Of a stretch of DNA of 64,000 nucleotides, positions 1-64,000 are shown piece after piece. The notes under the pieces were generated by a model. The model was not told the DNA's origin, ran no database searches, and saw only the letters and a program-made list of their open reading frames with translations. The position numbers and the translations under genes were made by a program. Every line of letters begins with the position of its first letter. The stretch's first letter is position 1. This DNA comes from Cyanidioschyzon merolae (lineage: Eukaryota), in assembly GCA_000091205.1 (NCBI GenBank), contig AP006489.2. The stretch is one strand, 5' to 3'.

Positions 1-1
1 C

Positions 2-3270: not shown

Positions 3271-3329
3271 CCATCGATCCACGTCCTACTTCCAAGTTCC
3301 ATACCTCATTCTTCTTCTCGGATATACTC

Positions 3330-10339: not shown

Positions 10340-11093
10340 AGATGCAGACGCTATGGAGCATGCTCCGCGATAGGTAGCATACTGCCGTAAAGTACCGAAT
10401 CATCAACGGCTGCAGAGAGAGACAGCATGATTTGTCTATCGAATAAAGTCGGTTATTTAACGGAACAAGTTCAGTAACGTTTTTGCATGAGCCTGCGACA
10501 AAGGATTCTGGGAGATTCTTTGGGGGGTTTCGTTCCCCCAGCAACCCAGCGGCATGCTCAGTTGCGCCGCCGAGTTGCCTCAAAAGATAGTCGTATAGAA
10601 AACCTGAAGCAGTTGTGATATGGGCATGGTACACGTAAGGAAAGGAGCAGCGTGGACTATCTTACACACGAATTGGATAAAGATATCGCGTACCTTACGA
10701 AGCTTTGCTCAAGATCGTCTCAAACCATCTTGACTCCTGGAATGTCATGAATTCCAGTGGTAAAGCATCGAAGGAGCAACGCTGAAAACGCGATCAAGAA
10801 CCCTAACGCTGCGTGTGAGTCCGTGAACCCCCATTGCTGCCATTCGAATGCCACGGCTATCTATCTACACAAATTTTCGGAAAATAATCGAAAGCCTGGA
10901 AGAGAGCACCCAGTACCGTATTCCGAAATGTTCTGACATGGGCGTGCGACACAGCTTCCGCCAATTTTGAGAAGCGCGCTCCGTGAGCCGCGCCAGGTAT
11001 TCGAATACTTTAGACGTAGACAGCGTCTTGGTACCAGCATCCATAAGAGATGCTGTTTGGCAGCTACTGGAGCCCAGTGTGTGGCTGGTTTGA

Positions 11094-16771: not shown

Positions 16772-17430
16772 GTGGATCCCGAGCCGCACCCGGAGGTTAC
16801 GCTCAGCAGGGTCAACGAACGACGAGACGCGCTGGTTAGCGCTGCTGACTTGTTCCCGGATGCATCACAGGGCCGTGGCCTGGTATGCACCAAAACTTAC
16901 GGTATGCGCGTTGCTCGATCATGACGGCAAGCTATGCGCATCTCGGTTGTGCTTGGTCTGGCACAAAACGCGAAAGCAAGCTGCCAGTGATCTTGATTGT
17001 CGCTTTCAAGTGAAGCGGCGGGTAAAGCACGCACCGACGGGCGCTATGTCGACCGCTGCTGCGGAACGACCAGACGGCAGGCGTCGCTGCGACCTTGTGA
17101 TGATGCCACAGAGAAGCACATAAATGAGCGTTTATCGTTACCAGCTTCGACGGAGCATGTGATTGTTCCCGCTGGAGAATGCACATTAGTGTGGTGCGTT
17201 CCCGTCAGGTCAAGTAACGACCGGGGATTCCGTCCGCACCGCCTCCGTTAGACATCATGTGCTGAAGGTGTCCGAGGCTCGTGCGCAGATCACTCGCTTG
17301 GGCCGTACTCGTCTATGTGTCGAAAGGAAACACCGTCGACGAGCCGAGTGCTTCGCTTCGATCGCTCATTCGTCATAGCATTGTAGATGAGCGACGAAAG
17401 CGCGTTCATGACGCCTCGCTCCGCGCCTCG

Positions 17431-18037
17431 CGAATGGAGTCTAGAGTGGGTATCGTCGAAAAATACAAGTCTATGATCGTTGACGAATTGCCCACGACAA
17501 TCGTTACCAGTAGAAAGAGGTAGAGAGAGAGCTATGCGGCGCGTCAGGCTTGCTCAGTCGCTGAACCCCTCCATACCAGTCCTTTGATCAACGCGAGCAT
17601 CCAGAGCGGTATCTCCTGGTCACCGAGTTTTTGCATCGGAATGCAGCTGCGTTTCAGTACAATGGCCGCACAGAGTGCGAAACGAGTCTCGTTCAAGTTC
17701 GCTCGACACGAAACCGCTGGACGCGACTGAAGCGCAGGACATTTCCGGGTATCGATCGCTGCATGCAAGTAGCGGTTCGGAAAGTGCATGCCCTGCTGGG
17801 TACTGGTGGCATCGCAACACAGCAAGTGTCACCACCAGGTCGATAGTCGCGCCATCTGATGTTGCATCAGTTACCCGATGTACGATCTTGTGAGTCTGGC
17901 TCTGTTTCACGCGCCTCTACGCTGCCGGATTCAACAGGCACCTGTGCTCGCGATACACGTACTTTGTCCTTATTCATTCGCGAAACTCGCATAGATCCGA
18001 TTGCTGGACTCGGTGTATGCTCCTGTCGATAAAGTCG
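17431..18037. repeat. Dispersed 606-bp repeat, copy 1. About 99% identical direct copy at 25076-25682.
   Basis: Both copies begin gaatggagtctagagtgggtatcgtcgaaaaatacaag and end gatccgattgctggactcggtgtatgctcctgtcgat. I found only 4 mismatches by eye. Flanks are unrelated. Confidence 0.9.
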
Positions 18038-21244: not shown

Positions 21245-22460
21245 GTGTACGCCAAGCAGCGCAGAGGGCGGCATCTAAGCGAGTCGCGGCGAGGCCGCGA
21301 GCGGCGACCGCATCTTCCTCATGCTGTACCTTACGCACTTTTAGGGATATATCTGGACTTCATTGGCCTGTCCGATGCGTGCGCGCCTATTTTTGTCCAT
21401 TTTGATGCAATGCTGACCAAGCCAGCGTTCTCTGACCCGGTGCTCGGTATTCGCACGCGGTGGAGCATTCGTGATTCCAGGGCCCGCTTCCAAGTCCCAG
21501 AACCCATCCTTCATCCCGTATACACAGGTTGCTTCATTCGTTCGATCGCTTGCCCAGCGTCTCCCCTGATCGTCCGCAATACTGCCTGTACCGTTGGTAC
21601 GGATACAGCACGGATGCAGTACGGCGTTGCTGTGGTAAACGAGGGCTTCGGGCTCGAGGTTTGCCTCAGACGACACTGAATCAGGGCTCGTCGCCAGTTT
21701 GTGCTCAGCCAGTCTGCGGTTGCAAACTTGCCTTCGCTGCACGACACGTTGGAGCAACTTGGCTGTTAGGATGAATCCTGGGAGGCGCCTCTCTCCTTTG
21801 TGATCGTTCATGGAATGCACGATCGTTTAGCGACGCGGGCTATTGCTAGGCACCCACCAGTGGGTAGGCGCAGAAAGCGCACTGGGCCCGTGTGCGCATC
21901 CGATTCGCTGGACCTTTTGCCCAGAGGGTGGCTTGGGCGCGAATGTCCGCCAGGCCGCCGCCTGTCTGTGGCGCACGAACGCTTGCTTCATCGGTCGGTG
22001 CATGCGACGGGCGTATGCAAAGGGTTACACCCTGGATGCTCCTCTCGGTTTGCGCATCCGGTGCTGTACTCTGCGATCATGGGCCTCTTCTGGGCGATTG
22101 CCTCGGCGAGTGCTCTGTCTGCTGTAAACACAAGCGCAAGCGGTTTTACTAGATAGCGGTTATGTTGCATGGGATTTCATATTCTTGATGAAACAGGTAC
22201 CGGGAGGAAAATCCAGGCTGGAGCAGAAGTCGAGAAATGTCGATCTGCCAATGCTCCTTTCGTCCAAATAAGCGACGCCCTGGACATGGAAGCGATCGCC
22301 ACGATGGCTGAATTCCGAGTCCGAGGCCTTTTTCCAGGCACACAGAAGAGACGGAACCCCCTGGGGGCATAGTCCATAAGATGCAATGCCGCTGCCTGGT
22401 GCCGTTCCCGTGAAGGCCACAAAGAGAGGAGTCTATGTCTGTCATTCGGAATCAATTATG
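21245..22460 (-). mobile_element. TnpB/Fanzor-like element remnant (copy B) plus a downstream conserved hairpin-rich element shared with 3340-3450
   Basis: Minus-strand ORF ending at 22160 has LDFPPGTCFIKNMKSH, the family motif seen in copies A, C and D. Interval 21540-21650 is about 80% identical to 3340-3450, with core gcctgtaccgttggtacggat.cagc.cgg...cggcgttgc.gtg. Further minus-strand similarity (MHKEKLKPLEG vs MNDHKGERRLPG) runs up to about 21820. Confidence 0.45.
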
Positions 22461-22984
22461 ATTTGATTTGACAAGTTCTCGGAAAGTTCGGCTGGAGCTT
22501 GTGTCCAAACAGCGTCAGGCCGACGTCGAGTGTGTTTTTCCTCGTCAGGCCAGCGGCACGAGTTGCTGCATCCATGCATTGCCATGAGATCGAAGTATAG
22601 AAAATTTGGAGAATGCATGGTTTCGGCATGCGGGACGTTTGCAACATTAGAAAATTGGAGGTGTGTACATACGCACTGGATAACGATATTCGTTATTCTA
22701 CGAGCACGCGTTCACTAGCGACGCCAATCATGACGAATTCGTTGACAGCACGCATTCTGGCGGCAGCGTCCCAAAAGATCGATTCCGATGAACGCGACCG
22801 TGAAACCCAAAACAACGAATGATTCGATGAGCCCTGATTCATGACCTTCGAAAGCCGAACCTGTACAGCTTCAAAAAAACTTTCGGAAAAATATTCCAAT
22901 GGTACGAACAGAGCAACCAGTTTAGCGTTCGGTTTTCCGCTTTACGGATTCAAAGCACCGCACCTGGTGCAAGCCGCAACTGCA

Positions 22985-23565
22985 GCGCGGCGCCAGCGCG
23001 GACGCCCACCCCCTGCCAGCGTGGGGCCCATGGAGGTATCGTCTGCTTAGTCTCTAAAGTGGTAATCTATGGTAGTTTTATGCAGAATGACTTGGCAGGC
23101 GCTATGGACCGCGAGGGCGCTGCGCTCGCGTAGCAGATCGTGCAGTTTTATGCGTTGGTAATATAGTGACGCGCATGCGCTTGCGCGGACGCCCACTCCC
23201 TGCCAGCGTGGGGCCCATGGAGGTATCGTCTGCTTAGTCTCTAAAGTGGTAATCTATGGTAGTTTTATGCAGAATGACTTGGCAGGCGCTATGGACCGCG
23301 AGGGCGCTGCGCTCGCGTAGCAGATCGTGCAGTTTTATGCGTTGGTAATATAGTGACGCGCATGCGCTTGCGCGGACGCCCACTCCCTGCCAGCGTGGGG
23401 CCCATGGAGGTATCGTCTGCTTAGTCTCTAAAGTGGTAATCTATGGTAGTTTTATGCAGAATGACTTGGCAGGCGCTATGGACCGCGAGGGCGCTGCGCT
23501 CGCGTAGCATATCGTGCAGTTTTATGCGTTGGAGATATAGTGACGCGCATGCGCTTGCGCGGACG
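22985..23565. repeat. Tandem array of a 179-bp unit, about 3.2 copies, ending inside the 5' end of the PcyA ORF
   Basis: Unit gcgcttgcgcggacgcccactccctgccagcgtggggcccatggaggtatcgtctgcttagtctctaaagtggtaatctatggtagttttatgcagaatgacttggcaggcgctatggaccgcgagggcgctgcgctcgcgtagcagatcgtgcagttttatgcgttggtaatatagtgacgcgcatgc recurs at about 22997, 23176 and 23355. The first copy is slightly diverged. Confidence 0.9.
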
Positions 23566-24526: not shown

Positions 24527-25075
24527 ATTACCTTTTGGTAATGCTGTCAAGTGAGTACATGTACAACACGCAAGATGCATTTAGCATTGTAGTCGAGTGG
24601 AGTTCTAGGAGCCGCTCGGTACAAGCTCTTTTCCTGTTGCAGTGCCACGGCGGCGCGGTGTCGTCAGCTGGCGAAGAGGCCTCCACCAGAACCTGAACGT
24701 AAGCGACGCCGCGCTGTACGCTGCCTATTCACCGAGGACGCATCCATGAAACCAACGTGAAACGCATGGCAATGCCGCATGGGTCGTAACGCGAATGCGA
24801 ATGCCGCACAGCGCCTTTTGCATGACGATGATGGATGCAAACCTCCCGATATTTGTGTCGAGTGCCGGATGATGACTGGATGCACGTGCACGTGAAGTCG
24901 AATGGACAGGATGCTGCGGCTGGTACAGCGGCATCGGTCGCTGCCTGCACGGTACAAGCTGTCATGGAATGCGCGCCACTCGAGGGCATTCCATAATAGG
25001 ATATGTGCTCGCTTTGCGCTGGGGTCATGTTGGGAGTACCTGCAACGCGCATCATGCGTTGGACCAGACCGGCGC

Positions 25076-25682
25076 GAATGGAGTCTAGAGTGGGTATCGT
25101 CGAAAAATACAAGTCTATGATCGTTGACGAATTGCCCACGACAATCGTTACCAGTAGAAAGAGATAGAGAGAGAGCTATGCGGCGCGTCAGGCTTGCTTA
25201 GTCGCTGAACCCCTCCATACCAGTCCCTTGATCAACGCGAGCATCCAGAGCGGTATCTCCTGGTCACCGAGTTTTTGCATCGGAATGCAGCTGCGTTTCA
25301 GTACAATGGCCGCACAGAGTGCGAAACGAGTCTCGTTCAAGTTCGCTCGACACGAAACCGCTGGACGCGACTGAAGCGCAGGACATTTCCGGGTATCGAT
25401 CGCTGCATGCAAGTAGCGGTTCGGAAAGTGCATGCCCTGCTGGGTACTGGTGGCATCGCAACACAGCAAGTGTCACCACCAGGTCGATAGTCGCGCCATC
25501 TGATGTTGCATCAGTTACCCGATGTACGATCTTGTGAGTCTGGCTATGTTTCACGCGCCTCTACGCTGCCGGATTCAACAGGCACCTGTGCTCGCGATAC
25601 ACGTACTTTGTCCTTATTCATTCGCGAAACTCGCATAGATCCGATTGCTGGACTCGGTGTATGCTCCTGTCGATGGAGCTGG
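25076..25682. repeat. Dispersed 606-bp repeat, copy 2 (direct orientation relative to 17431-18037)
   Basis: See copy 1. The duplicated ORFs in the track (17544..17825 and 25188..25469) are identical. Confidence 0.9.
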
Positions 25683-27866
25683 GGTGTGGATTTTGCGGGC
25701 GGCAGCGCATCCAGCACCATAGGCTATTACCGAACGATGAGACTGGCATGTCATTTTTTCTGGTGCACTGAATAAATTGGCGAATGCACGCGTCTTGGCT
25801 CCGAACAATCAAACCCATTCGCGACGTGAGCCCGGTCTTTTGAACTCCTGCAAATGATCGTTTGCGCATAAGATGTAAAGACGTTCATGTACACGCTGAA
25901 TAAAACCTCCAATGTATCTCGCTCCGCTCCATGCAGTACGGGGTGCATCGACATGCGTTCTGACGTGGTCATGTCGCTCGTTGGTATGCCTCGTGACGCC
26001 CATTTAACTCGAATTTCGATCAAAACAAACGCTGGAGTGATAGAGTATCTGCATTCGGCTCGGGTCTTTGGCTTCATCCCCTTGATTTAGCGGCCTTGGC
26101 GACGACCGCGACACCGTGAACTACGGGTTCCAGGCTCACCACGAGGCTTTTCTCGTTGTCAATTGTGAACGGTTGGCAGTGAAGCTCGTTGCTCGACTCT
26201 GGTCCAGATGCTGCGAACTGCATGCAGATTGATGTTCCGTGGGTCTCCCGTATCCCTGAAAACTTCTATCTATTTGTTTCCTGTAAAACGAGAAACAATG
26301 TACGCGCTACGCCAATCCTTTTCGCAAAGCTGTTTGAGTCGTTCGTAGTTGCTCGCAGTAACTAGCTCCTTCTTCGCCTTGTCTTTTACTTGGCGGGTTG
26401 GTATACATAGGGTCACTGTACGCGATATACGGTTATTTTACTCGGAATGCAGACGAACGGAATGGGCAGCGGTACCAAATTTCGCCTTTTATAATCGTAT
26501 ACCCTCTATTGTACAAGTGGCGTTTCTTATCTTCTCCGCCGAATGCACGTCCATGGACCGAAGCGTGTCCCTCTGCTCCCGAGCGTATTCGAGCAGGAAA
26601 GCAACCCCGCAATTCATGGCTGGCGAAAGTGGACACGGACTTGTCTACTGGTACATTAGTAATAAATAGTGTTTTGTCAACAGAGAAGACGCTTTCAATT
26701 TGAATGAACCGGAATGAATAGGCTGGTTCGAAGAGCACCTCAACGACGCACTGCGCTCCATGGTCGTTGTTGATTGACGGAAAACGACCTTGTCGAAAAG
26801 CAGGACAAAAGCATGCCGGTCGGAGATCCCACGAAACGTGCTTCGACGACAGATGAGGTTTCCCATGACCCTTCCTGTATGGCAACTTGTCAGCGATTCC
26901 ATGACAGCGTCGCCACACGGGCTGATCTCGTCTCCATGTTCGCTTGATTCTCCTTTCCGAAAAGCGGCTCTCCCATTTTTGAGAACGCAATATCCATCGC
27001 CTCTATTTTCCCACGAATAACGTCCGATCGAATGAGGCGTTCATCCGTTCCTACTGAAACAAGCGTTTCCATTGCAGCACCAAGTCGATTACGCGACACA
27101 GAACGCACGAGCGAGTCTCGCCGCTGAAGCGCGCTTCTCCCTGGCTCCACCCGAGTATCTCTATCAGCCTCGGTATGAAGCATCCTGGAACTGCATATAT
27201 GCTGTGCCTCTCATGCTGGTGTTTCCTGGAGCATGCACGTCGTGGAATGATCTGAGCAGCACGCTCAAGTGTAGAGAACATGTATGGTGCATTCTGCTTT
27301 TTTTTGAGCGCACGACGTCCATGATCTCGACAACGACCGGGACGATTCATGCGTTCTCTCTGACCCTCGTATGACGAACTTGTAAGCGTCGGGTCTGTCG
27401 TTGACCAGCCAGCAGTGACGCCATCGAGTCTCATCGCGAGCTTTCGCCGACCAACAGGAATCGTTCTTGTTGTTGAATACCACCGAGAGGACCGAATAAA
27501 ACCAGAAACGGCATGCTGGTACGGGCATTCCGGATAAGCACAAGCACGTCAGTGGTCGATACCTTTACGTCACGCGCATCCTCAGCACCGATTCCTACGT
27601 ACCCTAGTCTCTATAGTTGCTCATAACTGAGACGAATATGACGGAACATGTCGCTCGCCTCCTTCGATTCGCATGCCGCTCACGACCGTCTCCGCGAGAC
27701 GTGCACACTTCACGCTGCGAAAGAGGAGAGCGCTCTCACCTGAGCGCTTTCCAGTTGACCGTATGTAGAAGAGAAACTGCTTTTCGTGGAGATATCTCCC
27801 GTGAAGCCCACGCAGCGCCAACCCTGTGCCACAAAGACCGCACGATTCTAATACCATCACTGCTAT

Positions 27867-31221: not shown

Positions 31222-31556
31222 ATGGTACTCTGGACGGAGCTGGTGAAGGAAACGCAGCTATGATAGATCTCTCGTTGTTGTATAGGCTGTATAGAGCAAT
31301 ATAGGCGAAAGAGAACGCAACCGATTCCTGTTTATCAATGAATGAACACTCTCTGGTCAAGCAGGTGTCTCTGGATAACGTTCTTTTTTGGAGATTTCGA
31401 CGGAGCTGGTGAAGGAAACGCAGCTATGATAGATCTCTCGTTGTTACATAGGCTGTATAGAGCAATATAGGCGAAAGAGAACGCAACCGATTCCTGTTTA
31501 TCAATGAATGAACACTCTCTGGTGAAGCAGGTGTCTCTCGATAGAGAATTAGCAGC
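31222..31556. repeat. Tandem duplication, 2 units of about 167 bp, roughly 200-550 bp upstream of the AlaRS start
   Basis: cggagctggtgaaggaaacgcagctatgatagatctctcgttgtt.tataggctgtatagagcaatataggcgaaagagaacgcaaccgattcctgtttatcaatgaatgaacactctctggt.aagcaggtgtctct occurs twice (about 31225 and 31400) with 2-3 mismatches. Confidence 0.85.
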
Positions 31557-34691: not shown

Positions 34692-35225
34692 TTGAAGCGT
34701 CTAGGTAACGCTAGTCACCTAAACTTCCAGCGATCCTGCCAAGAACGTCGGTAGGCAGGCAGGCTGGCTGGCTGGCTGGCTAGCTGGTAAACCACAACGC
34801 AGCATGCTGCAGTGCAAACGGATTCAAAGGGAACACTGACCTATCTACTCGCTATATCGCTGCGTTTCTATCTTATTCAGACCTTTTTTAGTGTGCAGCC
34901 TTGGCATTCGCACGGAAGCAAGAGGGGTTTACGAAATCCTACCTAGTTTTGCGATTCTCGGTCGTTTTAGCGGAGTTGTGCCTTGGATGCTTTGTCGCTG
35001 GAATTCGTTACGTTAAGGAAATGAAGGTGATTCGCGTCGCCGTCGAGCAAGAGCTCCTTCAATGATCGATATCGGGACTTCATGCATACGTACTAACCTC
35101 TATTTTTCTCCGTTGCTTCAGCGTACAACGTGCAAATCAGGCATGCTTGGAGGTTTCGACCTCTCTATTTAAGGCTTCTCGTGAGTGCAGCTAATAACGT
35201 CACTGGACTCACGCGGAAATAATTC

Positions 35226-36040
35226 TTGACGACACCGACCATCGATGACTTGTTCAACAGCTCACGTCAAAAGATCACTGAGCTAATCACGTCAAATACT
35301 CGATTCCGTTCGACGGACATATCACCCCGTCTTCATGAACATGGAAGAGACAGCATTCCACAGCGGCATGACACCTCGCCGGGTAATACGCTCGAAAGGC
35401 TACCGTCTCCTCTGTTTGTACGGAAATTCGCCATGGTCTTGGATTTGAGTCATCATAACGACTGCGTCCAATGGGCAGTGCGTCACCGAGTTGCACGAAG
35501 TAAGCGTCGACGGGTCGTAATCTATCGACTTGTTCTCCGATATGGATTTTGCTTTCCGTGCTCGTTTCATCATAAACAACATTACACTCCACATTTATTC
35601 CATCGAATGGGACAGCGTACGCTTTCATGAGCAGCGGACAGCGTACTCGCCGAGGAGGTTGCCCACAACAACAAGTCCACGATCTTATTGTATGGAACCA
35701 AGCGCGGAAACGGAGCAGCGGGCATTGGAGGAAACCCAAAGTATCTGTCAAGGGCATGTACCGGGTGATGAAGCAATTCTTGACGCGCCACAAGGCGGCG
35801 CCCGGAAGAGTAGATACGGTGGACATATGGGAACACATGACGACAACCATATATAACCGCTGCAAGCGGCACACCTGGCCAGTATACAAAGGAGATGGAA
35901 ATGCCAAGCGAAGCGTCGATGCCAATGATCGCCTGTACATGAAATGCGTTGACATGAACTGGAAGCGGCGAAACCGCGACTCGAACGCCGCCATCAACAT
36001 CTTTCGACTGCCGAATACGAATCTGGAAGTAAAGTGAGAG
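35226..36040 (+). pseudogene. TnpB/Fanzor-like RuvC nuclease remnant (copy C). The most complete copy; split over three frames.
   Basis: Frame a: FAMVLDLSHHNDCVQWAV (RuvC-I-like, GIDLG-type). Frame b: DMDFAFRARFIINNITLH. Frame c: KPKVSVKGMYRVMKQ...YNRCKRH...MKCVDMNWKRRNRDSNAAINIFRL (zinc-finger remnant plus canonical RDxNAAxNI RuvC-III). The upstream extent is limited by the kinase-PP2C gene, so the N-terminal domains are missing. Confidence 0.65.
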
Positions 36041-36242
36041 ACCGACGTATTTAAAGCTTCAAAAACGAGAGAGAAAAAGCCGGCAAAGACTGGTGTTGAT
36101 GATAATGGGTAACGACGAAAACCTGAGCATGTAACTCCTCCGTGCAAGCGGGACACGTTCCATTTCATCATGATACGGACGTCGTCCATACGTCTCAATG
36201 AACGTAACAGATCCGTTCCGTTTCATGCTGACACTGGTGTCG

Positions 36243-36677: not shown

Positions 36678-38072
36678 GATGAACTGCGACCCCAGATAAC
36701 GCCTACTCGTTGTTTTCTATCGCTGCGTTAGGTGCCGTAGCAGGTAAACGCAAGCGTCTATCTCGAGCAGCTCAAACGCGAGCAGTACCCACGAGGCATA
36801 GCAGCGGCTTGTGCACCATATCGCAAAAGCGTTTTTTCGTCTGGCAGTTGACGCCCGTGTGCAGCAAATGCGGGTGCGTTCGGCTTCGCACAACAGCTAT
36901 CCATTATTTTCCCAAATAATACATACATGTACAGTAAAATCGCATATGCGTGCCAGAGGTCCTGGTGTGCATGCGCATTTCTCTATGGCATGGGATGGGT
37001 GGCACGAACCGGACATCGCTCCATGTGTGCGCTCTCTCGAAGCATCTGGGTATGCATGCGGCATACCGCTCCAGATGCTCAGGTTCCACCCGCCGTGTTC
37101 ATCATTATCATCATCATTACCGTGAACGTGTTCTATACTTCCCATTGGAGATGATGGTTCGTTCACGTCATCTCCCTGGTGCCAGGCATGCTATGTGCGC
37201 TCACCGCAACGACTACGGCGCCGGTACGGACGCTGCTTGGCGACAGAACAAGCGCACGAACACGCTTCCAGCCGCTGTGGACACAAGCGTTTGGCGCACG
37301 AGCCGGTACGCGCACCCTCCGCAAGGCCTCTGGCATGCTGGTCGGCGTGTTCACGATAGCACCGCGCGGAGTTGCGCAGTGCGAACGAGACAATAGCGAT
37401 ACCAACGTGCTGCCTGCGATGCGCCGATGACATCGCCTACGCAGAGCGGCGACAAAGATGCAGGCGGCATAGCGCAGGCATCATCCAGAAACTATGTCGG
37501 TGGCAACGCAGCGAGCTGTCATCTCTTGCCCGCAACGAATGACTCGCCTTTCGCAAAACAGGTCCGCCGTCATCGATCCCTCCATGCAGCACTCGTGCGC
37601 GCAGGCGTCCGTGGACAACACACTGCAGTCCGGTACAAAAGCCTTGCTCCAAGCGCATCTATCCGCAGAAAAATTGACGCTTCGACTTGCTGCTGTGGAC
37701 GACGATACCACTGCCAGCGCCAGACGCGATGCAAGCGGACGTGACACCCTACAATTGACACCAGGCGCAAGCATGCACCCGTAAGCGATCCGGCTCCATT
37801 GGAAAACACAACCGATATGGCAACACGGTCGATAGCGACGATGCCCCTGCACTCGACGTATCGGCAATCCGGAGGTGCCTACACATCGACGGCAAGCCGG
37901 TCGACCGCTTGCGGCAAGCAGAAGCGCGGTTTCGGCAGGCACTAGGCACACACGATAGGACGTATGAAACGACCAGAATATCCGAGAAGAAGTATAGGGA
38001 ATGTAACTTGGAGGTAGGGTGTTTGATGGATACTTAAGCGTGCACTGAAAACCCCACAAAAAGAAAAGAAAA

Positions 38073-38615: not shown

Positions 38616-40956
38616 GAGGCCTTCGCCCCCGCGGACCGCGACAGTGTTTGTGCTCCAGACCTGGTCAAGTGGTATTGATCGCCTGCGAGGTGTATTTGAC
38701 ACGAGCTGCCCCGAATAGCGGCCTGTAGGCATGGTGAAACAAGCGAACGTATTGGACCGCTACGCCGAGTCGTAACGTATAGAGGAGCTCGTTATGTGCT
38801 CGGCATCGAGAGTTCTGGAATACATGTATCATCATGATCTTTTTGACTTTGTTCGTCGTTGTCTCGCGGAGGTATTGGACAAAGGGAATGAATCCTGTCG
38901 ATAGGGGGAAACGCCGCGGAAAGAATTCATGCTGGGGCTGCTCGCTTGCGAAAAACTGGTTCACTCGCCCAAGTCAGTCATTCTGGCATTCAGCACGTAC
39001 TTGAACCGAGCTTCTCGTGGCGCTGATGCCGAACCTCTTGCACCCAAAACGGAACCTGTCGTTCTCTATTTAGACAAATGTCTGACTGGTTGTCCATACA
39101 TTCCCGTCCGTAATTTCTTTGTGAAAACCTCTCAAAGAAGCCACAGGACGCGACTTTTTCGTACTAAGGATACGAAAAGTGACGAAGAGGCACTGATGGA
39201 CATAGGGAGAAAACGTGCTTCTACGGGACTCCGTCACGCGTTGCACAGCACACGAACACTGTTGTACTGAAACGCAAACGCTTCCCACACAATGGACGAG
39301 TGTTCGTCGCCCTGGACGTTACGCGATTCGAGAAAAACGCTCGACCTGTATACGGTACTCAAAGAGGTTTAGAACGCTGTCCGTACAGAAGATGCAAGCG
39401 AGCATGACAACAATAAAAGTCCTAGCGGCTCTTCAATGGTGCAATCGCCTACATATCACCAGGCGGAGAGGATCAATCGACATCTCATTGTTCCTTGACG
39501 CGTGCTTCGTGGCTTCTCCTTCCTCGGTGCTGCTGTCCTACTCTCGGACAAGGTCGCCGTCCATCAAGTAAAAGCGGTCATGCGGCACCCGACATACGTT
39601 GGCGTTGAGCTGATCTTCGTACCAGCTTCTGCGTTCTGGTGCAATCCAGTCGAAAACAGCTTGTCTAGTGCGAAGCGCCGGTTTTCGCGCCCACGGATCA
39701 ATAGATTGGTCAGTTGCACCCACGACGCTGAAAGCTGCAGGATGCCACTGAGGATCGCGTAGCTTTCTAGTCGAGGAAGGCTCGCCTAGCACTCATCGCC
39801 TCGACGCACCTCGTCAAGCAAATGTGCGTAAGTTTCTCGGACACACGGCATCGAGCTGTCCTTTTTCCACTCGAATTTTCTGATGAAATTTCCCTGCGAC
39901 AGTACAACGGATATTCGTTAGAAAGCACGCAACTCGATCTGATGTAATGATCAGAGGTTTGGAGGCACACTTCCCAGCATACCTTCAGACGTGGACGCGT
40001 CACGTTGTCAATTGAGGTAAACGATACAGCACAGGTGTGAAAAATTATTGAACAAGACTCAAAAAGCAAATCCATTTGCAGGTCAATGTCGAGCGATTCA
40101 TGAGGTCTGTCTCGTGAGCGTTGTACGCTCAACTCGCTGGTCCAAGAAACTGAAGACTACTTCAAGCGGATTCCTTAGGTGTCTATAGAGGCGAGTGGCG
40201 AGCTGGTGATGAAGCGCTCGAAATGGCAGCGAGTTCGGAAGAAAAGTCATTCCAACAGCGACAGTCGCTTCAGACCGTCCAAGCACATCCTAGTGTGCTC
40301 GGTGCCGGGCCGACGGACGTCACCTGCAGAGCATGGTTCAGACGTCATGCCTGCCTTGCTTGCATCCTGCGCTACTGCGTTTCCCAGAGGAGAGCCATCC
40401 CGGGGGGAATCGGATTTCCTTCCAGCATCCGAGCGTCTTGGCCTGACCGAGCGTCCACTGGATATGGTCACCAGTTGTCGAGTCAAGACCCATGAGATCA
40501 CCGTTGACATTTGTTTGTAGTAGTGCATGGACTCCACAGTAGGTCATGGTAGGTCTCTGTGAGCAAGCATGAAGCATTCGAACAAGATCGTGATGAGTAT
40601 GGCCGTACATCGTTCATGGCTCCTGGGCTACCGCGAGGACCTGGAAAGAGGTTCGCATTGGCGGTCAGGATCGACGGAATATCCAACTGAATGCACTCTG
40701 TGAAGTATAGACCTGAGTTCAGCACCGACACTCATTCTCATCCGTCCTAAGTAGCTGGACGTACGTAGAGAGGTTTCGTGGCGAGCATGCGTTTCGAGTC
40801 CAAGAACATCGTTGCCGTCTTCGCAGCTCTGATTCAAGAGGATAGAGCCAACGACGTGCATAGAACGCCAATGATGCTGCTCAACTTCTCCAAGGCTCTC
40901 TCTGATCGAGATTCGAGTCTGATGGACGCAAGAAGCCACACCAGCTACTGCAGTGA

Positions 40957-41874
40957 ATGCATTGTGACCATCTCGACGCCCTGAGTATCGTAACGGGCAG
41001 AGACGGGGGATGCGCTGTGCGCCTCGTTCAGAGCGTTCACGAGCATCCACAGAGCTCATACCGCAAAATTTTGGCGATAGTGGACGAAACCGTGTTGTCG
41101 TCGCCGACATTGTCGGTTGTGCGGAGGCAACAAGCGTGCATTCACCAATATCTTCAAAGAGCTGGAAAAACTGAAGCCCATAACTCGCGTCCTTGGGTTG
41201 CAGTCTACGGCGCCAGACATGCCGCTGTGCGCAAGGGCCGTACTCGTGCCTCTTCCGCCAGAGCGTACAACGAATTCAGGAATCGATTCTATACGATTTT
41301 CATCGATGATATCGTGATTCTATCCACGCATCACGAGCAAGCGTGCACAATGAAACAGGTGGAGAGGCAGCGCTTGCAACAGAGCCGGATGGATAACGTG
41401 GTGGTGTACCGTACGCTGACCGAATGCCAGATAGCGAGACGATCGAAAAAGAGCGGCTTGCTGGTATGTGATTCAACCAGAAAACACACGCGGACGCATT
41501 TCCTGTACCGAGACTTGACCACCACGATCAACCTTCGGAAACGTCTTGCGCTTCCACAGCATCTGGCGGCTTTTTTTCGACAAAGCTTTCAAGCGAATCG
41601 TTTGGTACTCTGTGTGGGCATTGGGCTAAAATGCGCAAGTCCTTCGATGAAAACATCAGTGCTCAGGAGCGAGGGCATTGAATCGTCGCTTGGACCACTG
41701 AACTGGGGTTTTACGCTTCAGCTACCCAGCAAGGCTGCTACTGGGCTCACAGACACCTGGAACACCTGTCCTTGGCCATCGATGAACGATATTGGTGTTC
41801 CATTATTCGATATTGCAGCGTGTGCACGCTTGAAACCAACGCTGCATTGTTTCGATATAGACAGGATTACCTAG
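40957..41874 (+). pseudogene. LTR-retrotransposon (Ty3/gypsy-like) reverse-transcriptase fragment
   Basis: SSARAYNEFRNRFYTIFIDDIVILSTHHEQ...LQQSRMDNVVVYRTLTECQIARRSKKSGLLVCDS. This matches the RT motif block NAPATFQR.MN / YxDDIxIxS / L..H.LY.KLSKCEF....V.FLGHVVS. No intact gag, protease or integrase nearby. The surrounding sequence is AT-richer. Confidence 0.4.
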
Positions 41875-48202: not shown

Positions 48203-48504
48203 ACCGACTGGTAGCAGGCGTGCAACAAGTCCCGCGCCTTTCAGGTATGAATCATGTTGGAAGCGTGTCACGCTGCGTCACGCTTGAATGGACAGACGAT
48301 TCATGATGCGTCTTCAAGTGCGAACGATGGCACTCCTGCTCTGGCGTATAGCACGAGATCGGAATCACGATGCAATGTATTGTACAGATTGTAGACGAGT
48401 TGCTTCTAGGATGTATACGCTTTACGGAACAGTGCAAGGAGGACTGCAAGAATGCTTCAGGTCAGTCATAAAACAGTACGCAGATGATTTAGGAACTCTG
48501 AAAG

Positions 48505-48530
48505 AAAGAAAGAAAGAAAGAAAGAAAGAA
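48505..48530. repeat. (GAAA)n microsatellite, with a G12 homopolymer at about 48653
   Basis: gaaagaaagaaagaaagaaagaaagaaag and cggggggggggggt seen directly. Confidence 0.95.
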
Positions 48531-48639
48531 GTGTGTGCGATCGGCACCAGAAACTGGTATTGTGAAAGTGTGCCTGCGGTCAGTGGTAGAAGTAGCAGAA
48601 AACGACCCATTGATCACTCCAGGGAAAGCAAACGATACG

Positions 48640-49900
48640 ATAGTAGACGCCGGGGGGGGGGGGTCTCTGTTTCTCAAAAGCTTGTTCTTTTTGTCCTGGT
48701 AACACGGGGCTCTGGTCACTAAAAAGCCCTAGTTCACGCACGGCTATCTTCCACCGAAATCGGAACTAGAGCGTTCCTGGAAAGTCACGACCCGTATGAA
48801 GCACGGACGTCGCTTTGCTTTTCCAGTTAATGAGACTCTCTTCGGACGAAACAGTCGTAGCGTCTATGGGTATTCGCGGAGCAGGGATCCCGTCGTAGGT
48901 ATACACGATCGTACTCGAAGAGAACGAGGGAATCATCATCTGTTCTAGGTGCAGTGGATTCATTTGGCAGGTCAGCTTTGGCTCGTAGAGAGGGTTCGTA
49001 CATCAGCACAAACCACTTTTTCGAAGACCTGAAGACTTCTCCCTGACGTCTGCCGACATGTTTCTATTGGAAAATTGTGGTATTTTACCGCTCTCTTTGC
49101 ATTCGAGCCTTTGCCGATTCTATCAGGGTAGAGCTGCTTTTCAATCCTGCGTACGCTTCGTGGTTGAATCCCGTTGAAGGAGTCGTTTCTATCGTGAAAC
49201 GCCATGGTCGCTGCACTGGGCGAATTGATGAAGCGTTCAGCATACGACGACACACGGGCGCACATCTCGACTTTCTTCCGCAAGTCCTTCTCGCCTCGCG
49301 AAGGTCCGAACCTGCGGCTTGCAACAGGTCCGTTCATTCGACGAAATAAAGAATCCCATGGAGCGGTATGTGCACGCAAGTCGAGGATCCTGAAGCGCTG
49401 TTACCGCCGGATGCCGAAAGAAAACGACAAAATCCTCTTCTCGCCGACCATGGAGCGAAGCAGACCAAATGACGAAAAAGAAGAAGAACGGTTGAGATAG
49501 GCCAGAAAACGTGTCCGCCCGACGGGACGATCACGAGACTTTGGTGACACCGAGGACACGAGTTGAACGAAGCCCTGCATTGGCGCGTACCACCAGAGGC
49601 AGTTCACGCGAGACGTTCACGAACCGAGGCGTTAACGCCACCATTAATATCAGACGTTGTGCGGTGCGGAATACGAGACCTGAGAAGTTTAGGCGATCTA
49701 ACTTTGTGGAGCAGCCTCTCAGGGTCGAAGTGTGCATGGAGAAGCTGAAGCCGATAGCACGCGCCCCGTCGAAAAAGGCTGAGAGACGTCTCCACATCAG
49801 GGGTTAGATATTCAGTCTATGGATGTCAAAATCATAGCGTGTAATGGCGAAACAATCTTGTCGGCATTGGCGAGTTGGGATGAGGATCCGGTTCAGGGTA
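48640..49900 (+). mobile_element. Degraded composite DNA-transposon remnant, copy 2 (inverted relative to copy 1 at 3330-4620): Tc1/mariner-type transposase C-terminal fragment plus TnpB/Fanzor-like RuvC-III fragment
   Basis: Plus-strand CIRAFADSIRVELLFNPAYASWLNPVEGVVSIVKRH (compare Tc1 [33 protein letters not shown]). Plus-strand 49620-49660 gives NRGVNATINIRRCAV (degenerate RDxNAAxNI). Homology to copy 1 is listed under that feature. Confidence 0.55.
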
Positions 49901-54357: not shown

Positions 54358-55325
54358 TTTAGTGAACTGGACTCGTGATTTGGACTAGCCGCGTTCGGAT
54401 ACACGAACACTGCAGGCTTATTATAGAGGAACTATCGGTAGTGCCTTTCCAGTCGCCATTGCAGCCAATACCGATCTCTACGCTCTCCGTGAATTAGACC
54501 CGTGATTCCAACCACACTCATTCGGATACTAGAACACTGCACGCTTGTTATAGAGGAACTATCGGTAGTGCCTTTCCAGTCGCCACCGCAGCCAATACCG
54601 ATCTCTACGCTCTCCGTGAATTAGACTCGTGATTCCAACCATACTCATTCGGATACTAGAACACTGCACGCTTGTTATAGAGGAACTATCGGTAGTGCCT
54701 TTCCAGTCGCCATTGCAGCCAATACCGATCTCTACGCTCTCCGTGAATTAGACTCGTGATTCCAACCATACTCATTCGGATACTAGAACACTGCAGGCTT
54801 ATTATAGAGGAACTATCGGTAGTGCCTTTCCAGTCGCCACCGCAGCCAATACCGATCTCTACGCTCTCCGTGAATTAGACCCGTGATTTCAACCATACTC
54901 ATTCGGATACTAGAACACTGCAGGCTTATTATAGAGGAACTATCGGTAGTGCCTTTCCAGTCGCCATTGCAGCCAATACCGATCTCTACGCTCTCCGTGA
55001 ATTAGACTCGTGATTCCAACCACACTCATTCGGATACTAGAACACTGCACGCTTGTTATAGAGGAACTATCGGTAGTGCCTTTCCAGTCGCCATTGCAGC
55101 CAATACCAATCTCTACGCTCTCCGTGAATTAGACCCGTGATTCCAACCACACTCATTCGGATACTAGAACACTGCACGCTTGTTATAGAGGAACTATCGG
55201 TAGTGCCTTTCCAGTCGCCATTGCAGCCAATACCGATCTCTACGCTCTCCGTGAATTAGACTCGTGATTCCAACCATACTCATTCGAATACTAGAACACT
55301 GCAGGCTTGTTATAGAGGAACCAGC
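54358..55325. repeat. Tandem satellite, 120-bp unit x about 8 copies, immediately upstream of the ASADH gene
   Basis: ccgtgaattagac.cgtgattccaacca.actcattcggatactagaacactgca.gcttgttatagaggaactatcggtagtgcctttccagtcgcca..gcagccaataccgatctctacgctctc recurs with exact 120-bp phase (54488, 54608, 54728 and so on). Two unit variants partly alternate. Confidence 0.9.
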
Positions 55326-58916: not shown

Positions 58917-60701
58917 TGTTCCCCTACAGACTACACCGCCAGGGCCTGCGGCAACAAACGCGCTGTAGAGGCAGCGCGTTTCTCCACGGCGATATGCGAT
59001 ATTTGCCGCCGCGTCCACGCACTGCACCATTGCGTACCGGGAGGCGATGCCTCGAACTGACTGTGCTCGACGAGTGTGCGGTTGATATCGGTTGCTGGAG
59101 GCACAAATTTCGAATTATCGGGCGACAGGTCCACGATCCTACTCCAGGCAAGTGCGACTCGGCTTGTCCGCCTGGTCATTGTGGCCCAGAGCGCGAGCGA
59201 GCGCCACCTTCCGGCGCCTGTGAGGCTGCCTCGGCCCCGGTACCACGACGTATGCAAGTTCCCGAAACGAGGTCCTCTATGCTACTGGTTGTCCACGTGA
59301 TCAGTCGGTGCCTGTGACTGAGCCTTCTCGATGACATTCGCTCTCGTCGATCATATTTTCGTGCTTCGCAGCGGCGCGTGCAGGCGAACGCTGCGATCCG
59401 GTGCGGCAACCTTGCAAGCGCGAATGCCCTGCTCTTGATAATTCGATGCTTTGCACGCGCAAACGGGTTTGAGTCACAACTATCTGCATAGGATCATGAA
59501 AGACGAACCGGTGCAATGAGGCATTCAGGAACGGGCGCACGGGCCTCGGAGTACCGGCTCTGAGCGGGCGATGTCGACGAGCGCGTCGTCAATACGCGAT
59601 TGCGACCAACTTGGGGCCGCAGCAAGCATCAGCGGCCTCTCTGGCAACGCATCGACAACGAGACGAGAGACTGCTCACGTTAGACGTGCAACCTGATTCC
59701 ATCGAGGCCATGGGAATCGCCAGACTCGATACAGGGTTGCGGGGCACGGCCGTCGATTCGCCTGCAACGACATACGACGCTGTTGCTGTTGCCCGGGACC
59801 ATGCCATCTTCAGAGCGAGCGATCGACTTTGAGCGGGGCCCTCACATCCGACCAGCGAACAACGTGTCAAACTCTTGGACTGGAACGCTCGTTCTTCGTA
59901 GCAGGTAGAGCGAAGCGCGATGATAACCCATCTCTAACCATAAAGTACCCTGCTCGCGTGCACGTCGTTGTCGCTTTCCTCGATGGCTTCCCGAACGCAA
60001 CACGCAAGCGTCTTGCAGCATGCATCTCCGTAGAACGTCGCTATGTCGCGAACCGACACGCACAAGGGTATAGGAAAGCTGTTTAGCCGCTGTGCTGCAT
60101 CTGTTCCAGCGGTTTGAGCGCTACGGCGGACGCTCCAAGCACGAACTCGGCGCACGATAGAACGTACAAGACGACCAGTGCATCTGGATGGGAGTATCAG
60201 CAATGCAGCTTGGAGGCAGGGTGCAACAACATCATGGACGCTTTCCCGAAAGCCTATTCCCATCCGAATCGCACTCTGGAGTCCGTGATCGAAGGCAACG
60301 TTTTGCGATCGGACGCGCAGATCCTCAATCGCCGCGCATGCATGCTCGTGTTGCCATGCCGCGCAAGTGCATTGCGCTGGGGCGGCGAGGCGCGCTTCTG
60401 TAACTGTGGCACATTTGTCTAATACAGGCGACGCGCCCCCGCAGCAGCCGCAGCGACTGCATATCGGGTCGAGCGGGCGTGCAGGCATACGCCACGAACG
60501 CTGGCGCATGCTCGCGTGACTGCGGGCATTTTTCAAGGTCGACTGTCGGAACGTACCGTAGTGGAGCTGCACACGGGCGTACCTCTCACTTGTTTGAGTT
60601 AACTGTTTGAAAACATAGCGCGTAATTGATCAGAGAGGGGTTCGGAGAGAAAGAGGGGTGAAACGCTGTCCTGGGCGCTGAATTATTCGCAGCACGGACG
60701 A

Positions 60702-61694
60702 ATGAGCTTCGTAACAACTGGGCCCGGGGGCTTGCACGAACTCGTGCTACGCCGCGTTCGCGACCTGGGGAACGAAGCCACCATTCGTCGGGTTATTGAG
60801 GCGACAACCTCGGGAAAAGCGAATGACTATGCGCCTTACGCTCCTGAAGGGTCGAAAACGAGCGGTACGCTGCGGCTATTGCTCGCCGCGATTTGGAAGA
60901 GCTATCTGCGCAAGCTGCAGACCGACCCGGTGGTGACCAAGTCCATCTCTGCGGCGATAATCTCACTAGTATCTGACTTGCTCGCCTCTTCCCTTTCGGG
61001 TTCGAAACTTAGCTCGCGTTCGCTTCTGAACCAGTTCAGTATAGGCTTGGCTATTCGTGGCCCCATTGTACACTACTTCCATCAGTTTCTGGACCGTGTG
61101 GTGTTTGCGCGTGTCACCAACCAGACCCAAATCGCAGTGGTCATCGCAAAGGTCATTATCGATCAGTTCATTTTCTCGCCACCGTACAACGCGCTTTATT
61201 TCCTTATCATTGGACTGCTGGAGGATCGCTCGCTCGCCGAGATCGGCCGCAAGATTCGTCGCGAGCTCTGGGGCGTGATGAAAACGAACTGGATTGTCTG
61301 GACACCTGCGAACATCATTTCGTACTACGCCATCCCGTTGGAACTGCGGGTGTTATGGGGTAATTTGGTGGGTATTATTTGGACCGCTATATTGATTTCG
61401 AAAGTGCGCCGAGGAGGTGGGAGCAGTTCTACCAGTAACCAGAACAGCGGCGGTAGTGGCAGCGGCGACATGTCCGCGAACTCGAGCGGTCACGCTCGTA
61501 TCGGATCGTCGGAGCAACCCAATGATCAGAGCGGAACGCGTACCTACGCAAATGCTGCTGCAACGAGATCGAGTGTAGGCCTCAGGGCTGGCGACGCATC
61601 AGCAGCATCGGGCAAACATCGTCAACCTATTGCCGAGAACACGAACGATGTTGAGGAATCAGAACACCTGAATGACCATAATAAGTTTGAATAG
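60702..61694 (+). CDS. Mpv17/PMP22-family membrane protein with a long low-complexity C-terminal tail
   Basis: Four TM segments with family signature ...WIVWTPANIISYYAIPLELRVLWGNLVGIIWTAILIS. The tail is rich in G/S/N. ATG start. Confidence 0.7.
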   Translation: MSFVTTGPGGLHELVLRRVRDLGNEATIRRVIEATTSGKANDYAPYAPEGSKTSGTLRLLLAAIWKSYLRKLQTDPVVTKSISAAIISLVSDLLASSLSGSKLSSRSLLNQFSIGLAIRGPIVHYFHQFLDRVVFARVTNQTQIAVVIAKVIIDQFIFSPPYNALYFLIIGLLEDRSLAEIGRKIRRELWGVMKTNWIVWTPANIISYYAIPLELRVLWGNLVGIIWTAILISKVRRGGGSSSTSNQNSGGSGSGDMSANSSGHARIGSSEQPNDQSGTRTYANAAATRSSVGLRAGDASAASGKHRQPIAENTNDVEESEHLNDHNKFE

Positions 61695-61859: not shown

Positions 61860-62379
61860 TTTGGTCACGACTCGACTCGGACCTGCTAGGTTGTTCGTGG
61901 ATGCGGCATGGAAGCGGGCACATTGGCACTGGAGCAGTGCGCTGCAGCCTGAACCCGCAGGCTGTGACACCCGCACCAGCGTGAAATTGAACAGGCTCGC
62001 GTACTTAACTAGGGCATACATACCAAAGGCCGTTCTCTTGCGACTGTCAAAAATACCAGCCTTTGCGGAGCGGTTTTCGCGACTGTTTCCTTTTCTTCTC
62101 TCTTATCTCCGGATTTCTATACGATGGTCTCTCGTTTCACCCCAGCTCTGATGTCAGCTGTTGAAGGAAGCGGATGGCAGTGCTCAAATCTCGATCTCAC
62201 TGATTCCGGCGGTTTTCGACGACTCCTATGCCCGGGCATAAGTTGCCCGTGATGCTTCCCGTGCCATTTTCATCTGCTTGGTTTACAGACCGGGTGCGCA
62301 TGTCAGAGCGATGACAAGCCCTATGGTGGTCAAGTGTTCCCGTGTGTCCACCGAGCCTCCGTCTTGTAAATTCGCTCTG

Positions 62380-62780
62380 TGACTCGTACAGGCTTGCTTC
62401 ATCGCTCGGCATGTGTCCAGGTGAGGTGTATCGGACGCTCATCTGGATACCCGACTCCGTCTCCGCCTCCATCTTCGCAAACCGAGGCACTCTCCTACGA
62501 TCACGCGCTTCTTCTGAGCGATCCTCTAGGCGAGTTTCCTGCCCGCTGCACGAGCCAGTGTGCGCTGCCTCATTTGATATACGACTTGTGGACCGTGATG
62601 GTGTACGTGATGAAACAAGTACCGGAAAGAATATCCAAGTTGGAGACCAAGTCGCGAAATTCGGATCCGTCTACCCACTTGCCATGCAAACCAGTGACGC
62701 ATTTTCCAGAGGAAGGGATCGCTGCGAAGCCTGCAGTCCCAGCTCGAGACACTTGACGATGCAAACACATGAGACGGGAG
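62380..62780 (-). pseudogene. TnpB/Fanzor-like nuclease fragment (copy D), minus-oriented and frameshifted
   Basis: Minus-strand FRDLVSNLDILSGTCFITYTITVHKSY matches the family motif. Further downstream on the minus strand, ...PIHLTWTHA corresponds to the FLTWKPL / VDIWEHM segment of copies A and C. The opposite-strand frames (MKQVPERISKLETKSR) also align with copy A, which supports nucleotide-level homology. Confidence 0.4.
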
Positions 62781-64000
62781 CTTCTTGGAACACATCCTTT
62801 GACAAGGTTCCAGCTGGTTCCGCATCTGGTTTCATCGGTGGCTGCAAAGAATGGAGCACTGGTGTTTCAAGCGGAATCGCTCATTTGAGGTGAGAATCTC
62901 AGTGAGGGTTCGGTATGGGTTTTTTTTTCGGAGGACCGGTCAAGGACTGACGTCGCATCGTTTCCTTTTTTCTATGGACCTATCAGCGCGGAGCGGAACG
63001 TCCACGAGTTACCGTGAATGAGAAAACACCAAAGACTCGAAGCATGTGTGATTTGAGCGTGCCTCACACACGAGAAGCGGACGATTATGGTATGTAACGA
63101 GTCATTGTTCGAGGACGTCCGGAATCATGGTTATTTCGCTGATATCATGAATGCCGGGGACAACGCGTCCATAGAGCGATTCCGACGAGCCGAGCGAGAT
63201 TCCCAAAAGCACCAAAGAATCCGTAGGGCTTTATTCCAGCACTTTGAATAACAAGGCTGTGCATCGAAACAATTTTCGAAAAGCGTTGTATACGAGAAAC
63301 AGTGCGACTAGTTCAGTGTTACATTATTATCCGATACCAGTGTAGACTTCAAAGAAGCGTTTGTGATGTGTGATCTGTGAAACCGAAAAATGTCCTTTCC
63401 CATCGAGGGTAAATGTAGATCCACTTGCAGACGCGAGCCAGCCTTTTCTGACATGCCGACTGCTATCGGTTTAGGTTTCTCCTTGCAGACTTCGAGTATT
63501 AGACGCTGCACCATGGAGTTCGCTTGCGTCATCTCCTCGGATCTCGTCTTCAGCGTCACACAGTTTCTGGTATTCTCAGCAGCGTTGAAGTTTCGATTCA
63601 CGAACTCCATGTATTTCTCGCTGCTGCTCGTACTCATCAATGGAAGCATTCCCCGAACTTTTGCCCTCCGAGCCACTTGCGTCTTGTCATTGTCCCGTGG
63701 GGCGAAGAGCTTTGCTCGCCCAGCGCCCGCTTCTTCTTCTTCTTCTTCGTTACTCGGCTATCTTCGCTCGACGGTCGAAGAGAAGGGCATGTATTCCCTT
63801 TGTTTCTGGCCTCCTGGATCCTCGCTTTCCATGTCGACACCTTTCCCTTGGATTTTTATTTCTTCAAATGAATGCACTTTGAATGTTTCTACTATAAAAG
63901 GCTAAAAAGCATTTGATGCCACGCACCTGGGCATGGAGCACAACTGAGCTGAAAGACCACAGCGAAGCAGCATCATCCTCCAGGCTGCTGGAACGCCGCT

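Follow-up and report, generated by a model that had tools for sequence, protein, structure and literature searches.

Copy D, a dispersed repeat near the right end of the window (the whole stretch of DNA analyzed here, 64 kb), is very probably a decayed copy of an old, dispersed, internally deleted, non-autonomous transposon of the IS630/Tc1-mariner type that carries the tail of a Fanzor1 gene. Several long ORFs in the window encode proteins identical to ones annotated in Cyanidioschyzon merolae strain 10D (BAM79621-BAM79637, including CYME_CMG115C; 584,452-bp chromosome). The window is gene-dense, with introns almost absent, and copy D is found in the intergenic spacer downstream of an Mpv17/PMP22-like gene (60702-61694). 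An earlier note had read 400 bp of this spacer as a TnpB/Fanzor-like relic, one of six in the window. These 400 bp are only the middle of a 1,375-bp unit (61968-63342), in which a Fanzor1 C-terminal relic (~62534-62059) is indeed present, whereas the rest of the coding part derives from a DDE transposase.

Two dispersed repeat families in the window

At the DNA level, the proposed likeness of the 62.5-kb region to other copies is real (68-72% identity, E 4e-11 to 3e-19), with matches at (i) 10068-10224 (72% over 163 nt, E 3e-19), (ii) 35654-35479 (70% over 179 nt, E 2e-14), and (iii) 22186-22354 (68% over 170 nt, E 4e-11); the four copies, A to D, can be aligned over about 1.3 kb. Comparison of the window with itself separated two dispersed families, fam1 and fam2, so that the six relics taken for one family mix the two: the sites at 10, 22, 35.5, and 62.5 kb form one DNA family (fam2, at ~9.6-10.9, 21.6-22.9, 34.8-36.2, and 62.0-63.3 kb), and those at 3.6 and 49.6 kb belong to another (fam1, at ~3.2-4.8 and 48.3-49.8 kb, with a partial copy at 63.4-64.0 kb). 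The copies are as follows.

9557-10944, minus strand: fam2 copy A (DNA alignment, tblastn of the consensus)
21561-22955, minus strand: fam2 copy B, the most decayed; 5' end approximate
34810-36181, plus strand: fam2 copy C, the best preserved; carries NRDSNAAINIFR; its tail alone matches Pfam TNB (E 0.003)
61968-63342, minus strand: fam2 copy D, very probably a 1,375-bp decayed non-autonomous IS630/Tc1-mariner-type transposon with a Fanzor1 tail; ends taken from the 16-copy alignment
3483-4811, minus strand: fam1 copy, IS630-type transposase relic plus internally deleted CMe-1-like Fanzor
48351-49800, plus strand: fam1 copy, IS630-type transposase relic plus internally deleted CMe-1-like Fanzor
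63416-64000, minus strand: partial fam1 copy (relic G), likewise with an internally deleted CMe-1-like Fanzor, positions 790-936 of the CMe-1A consensus joined to about 2828-3091; runs off the window

CMe-1A is a published C. merolae element with a 3,169-bp consensus, ~150 copies at ~80% identity, a 734-aa Fanzor1 protein, and no terminal inverted repeats (TIRs), which was left unclassified and whose 5' 635 bp constitute TE-N2_CMe (Bao & Jurka 2013, PMC3627910). The fam1 relics match it at 70-78% (3483-3746, 49378-49800, and 63416-63957). In the copies at 3.5-4.8 and 48.35-49.8 kb, consensus positions ~916-969 are joined to ~2816-3091 after a transposase relic, and the IS630-type transposase fragment P0139 matches at 3978-4315 and 48912-49199. 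By consensus DNA or protein alignment, CMe-1A-like pieces lie at the following positions in the window.

3285-3457, 3483-3746, 9262-9300, 37934-38018, 49378-49431, 49615-49800, 60049-60311, 63517-63680, and 63808-63957

Fragments of the first ~250 bp of the CMe-1A consensus, shared with TE-N2_CMe, occur at 3285-3457, 9262-9300, 21421-21657, 37934-38018, and 60049-60311; three of these, read in the plus-strand direction, precede fam2 copies by 0.3-1.8 kb. By eye, the 3' end of relic G seems to lie directly against the TA and TIR of copy D (~63343-63347), and its end, …AACGCTTCTTTGAAGTC, resembles the CMe-1A consensus terminus, …GCGTTTTTCTTTTGAAAGGCG. It looks as though one element inserted precisely at the terminus of the other.

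More diverged Fanzor1 relics are present at ~39.7-41.6, 25.3-26.3, and 17.7-17.9 kb. The first (39735-41631, plus strand) is a nearly full-length, frameshifted Fanzor1 that matches amino acids 78-702 of the metagenomic Fanzor1 proteins P0089/P0090 at 25-42%, its C-terminal part scoring 83.6 bits against the Fanzor1 HMM. The third, a C-terminal relic at 17694-17876, recurs at 25338-25520 within a 602-bp direct duplication (17429-18030 and 25073-25674; 99.3% identity, 7.6 kb apart), whose 25-kb copy extends into a longer relic (25293-26265). Intergenic tandem repeats comprise (i) a 127-bp unit repeated 7.3 times (54394-55321, 96%), with a copy number in 10D that differs from metagenome contigs L001 and L002; (ii) a 187-bp unit repeated 3 times (22996-23565, 98%), just beyond the end of fam2 copy B; and (iii) a 166-bp unit repeated 1.9 times (31233-31543).

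Scanning metagenome contigs with the four-copy alignment gave 35 loci, which reduce to 16 distinct loci; of these, four are orthologs of the window copies. A majority consensus of 1,385 bp was built, from the DNA alignment alone, on these four and the 12 further paralogous loci. All copies are 56-77% identical to it, and 13 of the 16 fall at 70-77%. Copy D is itself one of the 16 members, which makes E-values of D against the consensus slightly circular. The consensus is bounded by a 25-bp TIR, CACCCGTGTCGGATGAAAACGGAAC, and its two ends (CACCCGTGTC-GGATGAAAACGGAAC versus, as reverse complement, CACCCGTGTCAGAATG-AAATGGAAC) agree at ~22 of 25 positions; the two ends of copy D itself agree at 15 of 25. 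The termini of copy D are as follows.

63318-63342, minus strand: sense-5' TIR, CACTGGTATCGGATAATAATGTAAC on the minus strand
61968-61992, minus strand: sense-3' TIR, plus-strand reading CACCCGCACCAGCGTGAAATTGAAC
63343-63344, no strand: TA flanking the 5' TIR, putative half of a target-site duplication

The opposite flank of copy D (61966-61967) reads GA. Across the copies, whose flanks are decayed, an exact TA is seen at 3 of 12 5' flanks and at 3 of 13 3' flanks, the latter rising to at most 6 of 13 if the alignment is shifted by 1-2 nt; this is an enrichment over chance, which is ~5% per flank. TA on both sides is found in a single relic copy, L025, and also in an intact relative, L040. An 18-nt TIR pattern allowing up to three mismatches had no match in the window, because the TIRs of the window copies are too decayed. 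Similarity between copies stops precisely at the TIRs, with unrelated flanks beyond, at both ends of copies A to D and at the 12 further loci, which bears out the view that these are independent insertions. The suggestion of a formerly active family is likewise supported. As far as the literature was searched, we found no description of a TIR-bounded IS630/mariner-type family in C. merolae.

Transposase and Fanzor1 relics in copy D

The coding content of fam2 emerged from the 16-copy consensus. The four-copy consensus contained 10-15 stops in each frame and looked non-coding, and tblastx among the fam2 copies scored similarly in all six frames, so that no coding frame could be chosen from the window alone. 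Pfam scans of individual copies (ORFs and six frames) yielded almost nothing, the sole match being that of copy C, frame 3, to TNB (see above). The Fanzor1 HMM gave only 2-5 bits for fam2 on stop-to-stop fragments and hand-stitched translations, and tblastn searches that used CMe-1 plus four diverged full-length Fanzor1 proteins as queries matched other relics of the window and none of fam2. A hand-stitched four-copy profile, its frame path chosen by eye, gave a suggestive hhalign match to the C-terminal region of a Fanzor1 alignment (E 7e-6), whereas 27 controls of that profile (other frames, antisense, reversed, and column shuffles) scored far lower, at 12-24 score units.

In the 16-copy consensus, frame 3 reads ...LFVAIDETAFDSS...YAPRGS...GSVDESKFLDLFSNLDFPSGTCFIMDNIAFHKSS...AYSPRGSP and matches (i) Pfam DDE_3 (PF13358; 39.4 bits, E 6.8e-10, cutoff 28.6) over profile positions 3-114 of 146, and (ii) the NCBIfam IS630 transposase model NF033545 (E 5.4e-10). 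It carries IDET, MDN...H, and the start of YSPxxxP(I)E, and is cut off at this third catalytic motif. P0139, a related intact fragment, scores 102 bits against the IS630 model (cutoff 100). A protein homolog search that took the consensus transposase core as query, limited by its word index, recovered just four short relic ORFs. The coding relics of copy D are as follows.

63024-63272, minus strand: transposase N-terminal region relic, presumed DNA-binding; matched in tblastn by the N-terminal frame of the consensus (39% over 94 aa, E 3e-11); contains in-frame stops
62510-62923, minus strand: DDE_3 transposase catalytic core relic; matches the consensus in tblastn (50% over 138 aa, E 2e-33)
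62059-62534, minus strand: Fanzor1 C-terminal relic of ~170 codons; matches the consensus tail in tblastn (E 1e-22 and 8e-5), split over two frames and interrupted by stops
62513-62493: KKRVIVG, in the tail
62429-62394: TPHLDTCRAMKQ, in the tail
62354-62325: SVDTREHLTT, in the tail
62196-62161: DRDLSTAIRFLQ, RuvC-III-like RD motif, in the tail

The N-terminal relic is presumed to have been the DNA-binding region. The core of copy D also matches the independent transposase P0139 (32% over 72 aa, E 3e-5). It retains the first catalytic aspartate, in FAATDET (62848-62828), and has lost the second, TYT standing in place of MDN in LDILSGTCFITYTITVHKSY (62638-62579).

LDILSGTCFITYTITVHKSY is one of the two peptides on which the Fanzor assignment had been based. 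Both are present on the minus strand as reported (LDILSGTCFITYTITVHKSY at 62638->62579 and PIHLTWTHA at 62434->62408), and the match of the first to the SGTCFI(M/K)N segment among copies A, B, C, and D reflects true positional homology. Its identity is different from that proposed: LDILSGTCFITYTITVHKSY aligns with LDFPSGTCFIMDNIAFHKSS of the consensus and LPYPKGTVILMDNIAFHKT of P0139, which shows that the right frame had been picked, but in a transposase peptide, and it corresponds to ...CFIMDNIAFHK..., the second catalytic motif of IS630/Tc1-mariner DDE transposases. PIHLTWTHA, which had been equated with FLTWKPL and VDIWEH, is an out-of-frame chance resemblance, and we rejected it as a homologous segment: it lies 25 codons upstream of the corresponding position, in another frame, and overlaps TPHLDTCRAMKQ. 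The counterpart in copy D of FLTWKPL in A and VDIWEH in C is SVDTREHLTT (62354->62325), just outside the flagged interval. Two other candidate Fanzor signatures, SYVVLGFSV as RuvC-I and FRDLFSNM...SGTCFIMN as Fanzor motifs, were likewise discarded; both sit in the transposase part of the consensus.

Immediately downstream of the transposase, frame 2 of the consensus reads ...KKPVIVGYGTGRG...PVKGMYRAMKQAF...VVDIWEHLTTAKCHRCEG...CLCMKCVDNSRKQRNRDLNAAINILRL... and comprises the last ~170 codons of a Fanzor1, with the VIVGYG strand, the TNB zinc ribbon, and the RuvC-III RD motif. This tail matches the Fanzor1 HMM at positions 538-669 of 680 (61.4 bits, E 4e-21; best of 2000 shuffles, 9.5) and Pfam Cas12f1-like_TNB just under the cutoff (23.8 bits, E 5.2e-5, cutoff 26.3). 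The C-terminal motif described for Fanzor1, [TS][TS]-x-x-C4 zinc finger-x(5,50)-RD (Bao & Jurka 2013, PMC3627910), is found in the consensus as ...VVDIWEHLTTAKCHRCEG...CLCMKCVDNSRKQRNRDLNAAINI...; copy D keeps only EHLTT and DRD...AI of it, the cysteines having been lost. Upstream of HMM position 538, the consensus gave no Fanzor HMM match, and neither the complete RuvC fold (with the first catalytic aspartate, RuvC-I, 125-275 residues upstream) nor the N-terminal WED/REC half was found in it. Since a DDE transposase, and not more Fanzor, lies upstream of the VIVGYG strand, the unit holds a Fanzor fragment rather than a Fanzor gene. Frame 2 is also open for ~150 codons upstream of the Fanzor part (nt ~390-860; ~63010-62530 in copy D), overlapping the transposase in frame 3, an observation for which only composition suggests itself as a cause and that we count against the explanation preferred here.

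It is very unlikely, on this evidence, that the region is simply a fragment of a TnpB/Fanzor gene and that the six window sites represent a single formerly active family. A Fanzor1 tail relic does occur in copy D and in copies A to C, the 3.6- and 49.6-kb copies also have a Fanzor tail, and C. merolae holds the ~150 copies of CMe-1A. Against this, the diagnostic peptide belongs to a DDE transposase and the second peptide is out of frame, the family at 62.5 kb has no DNA similarity either to that at 3.6 and 49.6 kb or to CMe-1A, and even the consensus contains only ~170 of ~700 Fanzor codons. The implied role of TnpB/Fanzor as the mover does not hold either; with only the last quarter of Fanzor present in the consensus, a DDE transposase acting on the TIRs is the mover indicated.

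That copy D is instead a diverged fragment of CMe-1A is still less likely, even though a CMe-1A-like relic immediately adjoins it (63416 onward) and fragments of the CMe-1A 5' region are scattered in the window. Apart from the RD motif (NRDSNAAINIFR in copy C), blastn, tblastx, and tblastn gave no similarity between fam2 and the 3,169-bp CMe-1A consensus. In BLASTP, the consensus tail matched Fanzor1 proteins of several lineages (E 5e-7 to 1e-4) and CMe-1 only at E 0.014; its best matches (E 5e-7 to 4e-5) are thus to other Fanzor1 proteins. Moreover, CMe-1A is reported to be without TIRs, whereas fam2 has them.

Proposed origin, decay, and gene conversion

An apparently near-intact element of ~3.4 kb on a metagenome contig (L040; JGI sample 3300007033, contig Ga0102680_101607, locus 1-3810) offers an example of what the parent of fam2 would have looked like. 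Its features are as follows.

420-451 and 3779-3810: TIRs, 32 nt
751-1284: IS630-type transposase ORF, DDE_3
1520-3616: intact Fanzor1 gene (P0090, 698 aa), in the same orientation as the transposase

P0090 is 42% identical to CMe-1, and the N-terminal part of the L040 transposase may be frameshifted. The TIR core of L040, …TGAATAATGGAACAC…, is homologous to …GATGAAAACGGAACAC… of the fam2 TIR; its transposase and tail, in contrast, are each only 29% identical to the fam2 consensus, which makes L040 a distant relative and not the direct parent. The full-length parent of fam2 itself was not found. The intact layout of L040 (TIR, transposase, Fanzor1, TIR) makes it most plausible that fam2 is an internally deleted, non-autonomous derivative of a Mariner/IS630-type Fanzor1 transposon, and the sizes agree: 3.39 kb minus the ~2.0 kb between the YSPxxxPIE motif and the VVAYG strand of L040 leaves 1.39 kb, the length of fam2.

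We propose that a parent of ~3.4 kb, composed of TIR, transposase, Fanzor1, and TIR, lost ~2 kb by an internal deletion that would have taken out the last part of the transposase together with the first three quarters of the Fanzor, with a junction that can be placed to within about 10 codons. Because both TIRs were kept, the deletion derivative could be mobilized by transposase supplied in trans, and would have moved by cut-and-paste into TA sites with the Fanzor tail as an inert passenger. A different possibility, that the 1.4-kb elements are mobile carriers of guide (omega) RNA, encoded by the Fanzor tail and right end (which would then have been kept for a reason) and working in trans with full-length Fanzor1 from autonomous elements, we regard as quite improbable; if true, such guide carriers would be the eukaryotic counterpart of guide-only IS200/605 derivatives. 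More likely than this is another reading of the same relics: fam1 and fam2 each carry a DDE transposase relic together with Fanzor1, both families thereby link the two proteins, and this hints at a clue to the classification of CMe-1-type elements. Perhaps, then, IS630/mariner-type transposons once carried the unclassified CMe-1A family along as a passenger, a suggestion that we hold somewhat short of an even chance.

Copy D is 71.7% identical to the consensus (K2P 0.36) and contains at least six in-frame stops across its modules, as well as several frameshifts; judged from this decay, it probably has no coding function today. A present-day function, either of a 183-aa plus-strand ORF (62342-62893) or of a structured RNA, for instance a Fanzor guide (omega) RNA, is accordingly a very improbable alternative. 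Gene callers do predict an ORF at D on metagenome contigs, and the guide RNA of TnpB/Fanzor systems extends over the 3' end of the ORF. The 183-aa ORF, however, has no Pfam match, is absent from the 10D protein set, runs antisense to the relic, and is not kept as an ORF in the other copies. As to RNA, Rfam and tRNA scans gave no matches, the 263 nt at the 3' end of D show no more folding stability than shuffled sequence (z +1.63; L040, z -0.01), and conservation across fam2 is not higher at the 3' end.

A second locus, D' (L011 2909-4192; L012 1-1279), is 99.5% identical to the interior of copy D (62034-63316, 1.28 kb), while the terminal 26-66 bp and the flanks of the two differ. D' lies beside an FMO-like gene that is BAM79647 in 10D; counted by accession number, this is the tenth annotated protein after the Mpv17-like gene BAM79637. 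As D and D' are both ~28% diverged from the consensus and yet 99.5% alike, their likeness does not come from descent, and the simplest reading of the two sequences is a recent ectopic gene conversion between two old relics. Such a conversion would explain the breaks and chimeras of metagenome assemblies at D: contigs L001, L002, and L004 end inside D, L010 crosses its right end as in 10D, and L003, which is either an assembly chimera or a recombinant, joins the left flank of D to the right flank of D' (2938/2939). That the copies are segmental duplications of one locus and not products of transposition is scarcely credible, since, for all the near-identity of D and D' and the separate 602-bp, 99% duplication (17429-18030 and 25073-25674), similarity among A, B, C, D, and the 12 further loci ends at the TIRs with unrelated flanks, and the differences between D and D' at their termini and flanks form the gene conversion pattern of pre-existing insertions, not that of a duplicated block.

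Significance and comparison with known systems

As yet another decayed transposon copy between genes, copy D is of little direct importance. Although C. merolae is known for its scarcity of transposons, its genome contains an old TIR-bounded family of the IS630/mariner type. A de novo survey reported no miniature inverted-repeat elements (MITEs) in this alga (PMC3964958). The transposase relics linked to Fanzor1 tails in two families of the window also hint at how the unclassified CMe-1A once moved.

CMe-1A and TE-N2_CMe resemble fam2 in that they come from the same genome, belong to the same protein superfamily, Fanzor1, and are, like it, old. In contrast, CMe-1A encodes a full 734-aa Fanzor, has no transposase, and is reported to lack TIRs, whereas fam2 spans 1,385 bp and combines TIRs with a DDE relic and a Fanzor tail. 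With IS630/Tc1-mariner elements, fam2 shares matches to the DDE_3 and IS630 models, catalytic motifs, TIRs, and, at several copies, TA flanks; it differs in being cut off at the third catalytic motif and, in copy D, in the loss of the second catalytic aspartate and the presence of stops. Like internally deleted non-autonomous transposons and MITEs, fam2 has kept its TIRs and would have lost coding capacity by an internal deletion and been amplified in trans, although at 1.38 kb it is larger than MITEs.

Fanzor1 elements of the Mariner type, with TA duplications, constitute a recognized class known from oomycetes and algal viruses (PMC3627910). The members PUl-1, PUl-4, and PGv-1 (PMC3627910) carry a transposase followed by Fanzor1 in the same orientation, with TIRs and TA, as does the proposed parent of fam2, and the fam2 consensus tail aligns with the C-terminus of the PUl-1 Fanzor (E 4e-5), including the PVKG...ALK motif. 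Unlike them, fam2 has ~2 kb deleted, resides in a red alga, a host group with no such element listed in PMC3627910, and is dead in all copies seen. The feature is real and repeated, and it is a Mariner/IS630-type Fanzor1 element of a known kind, in long-dead, deletion-derivative form.
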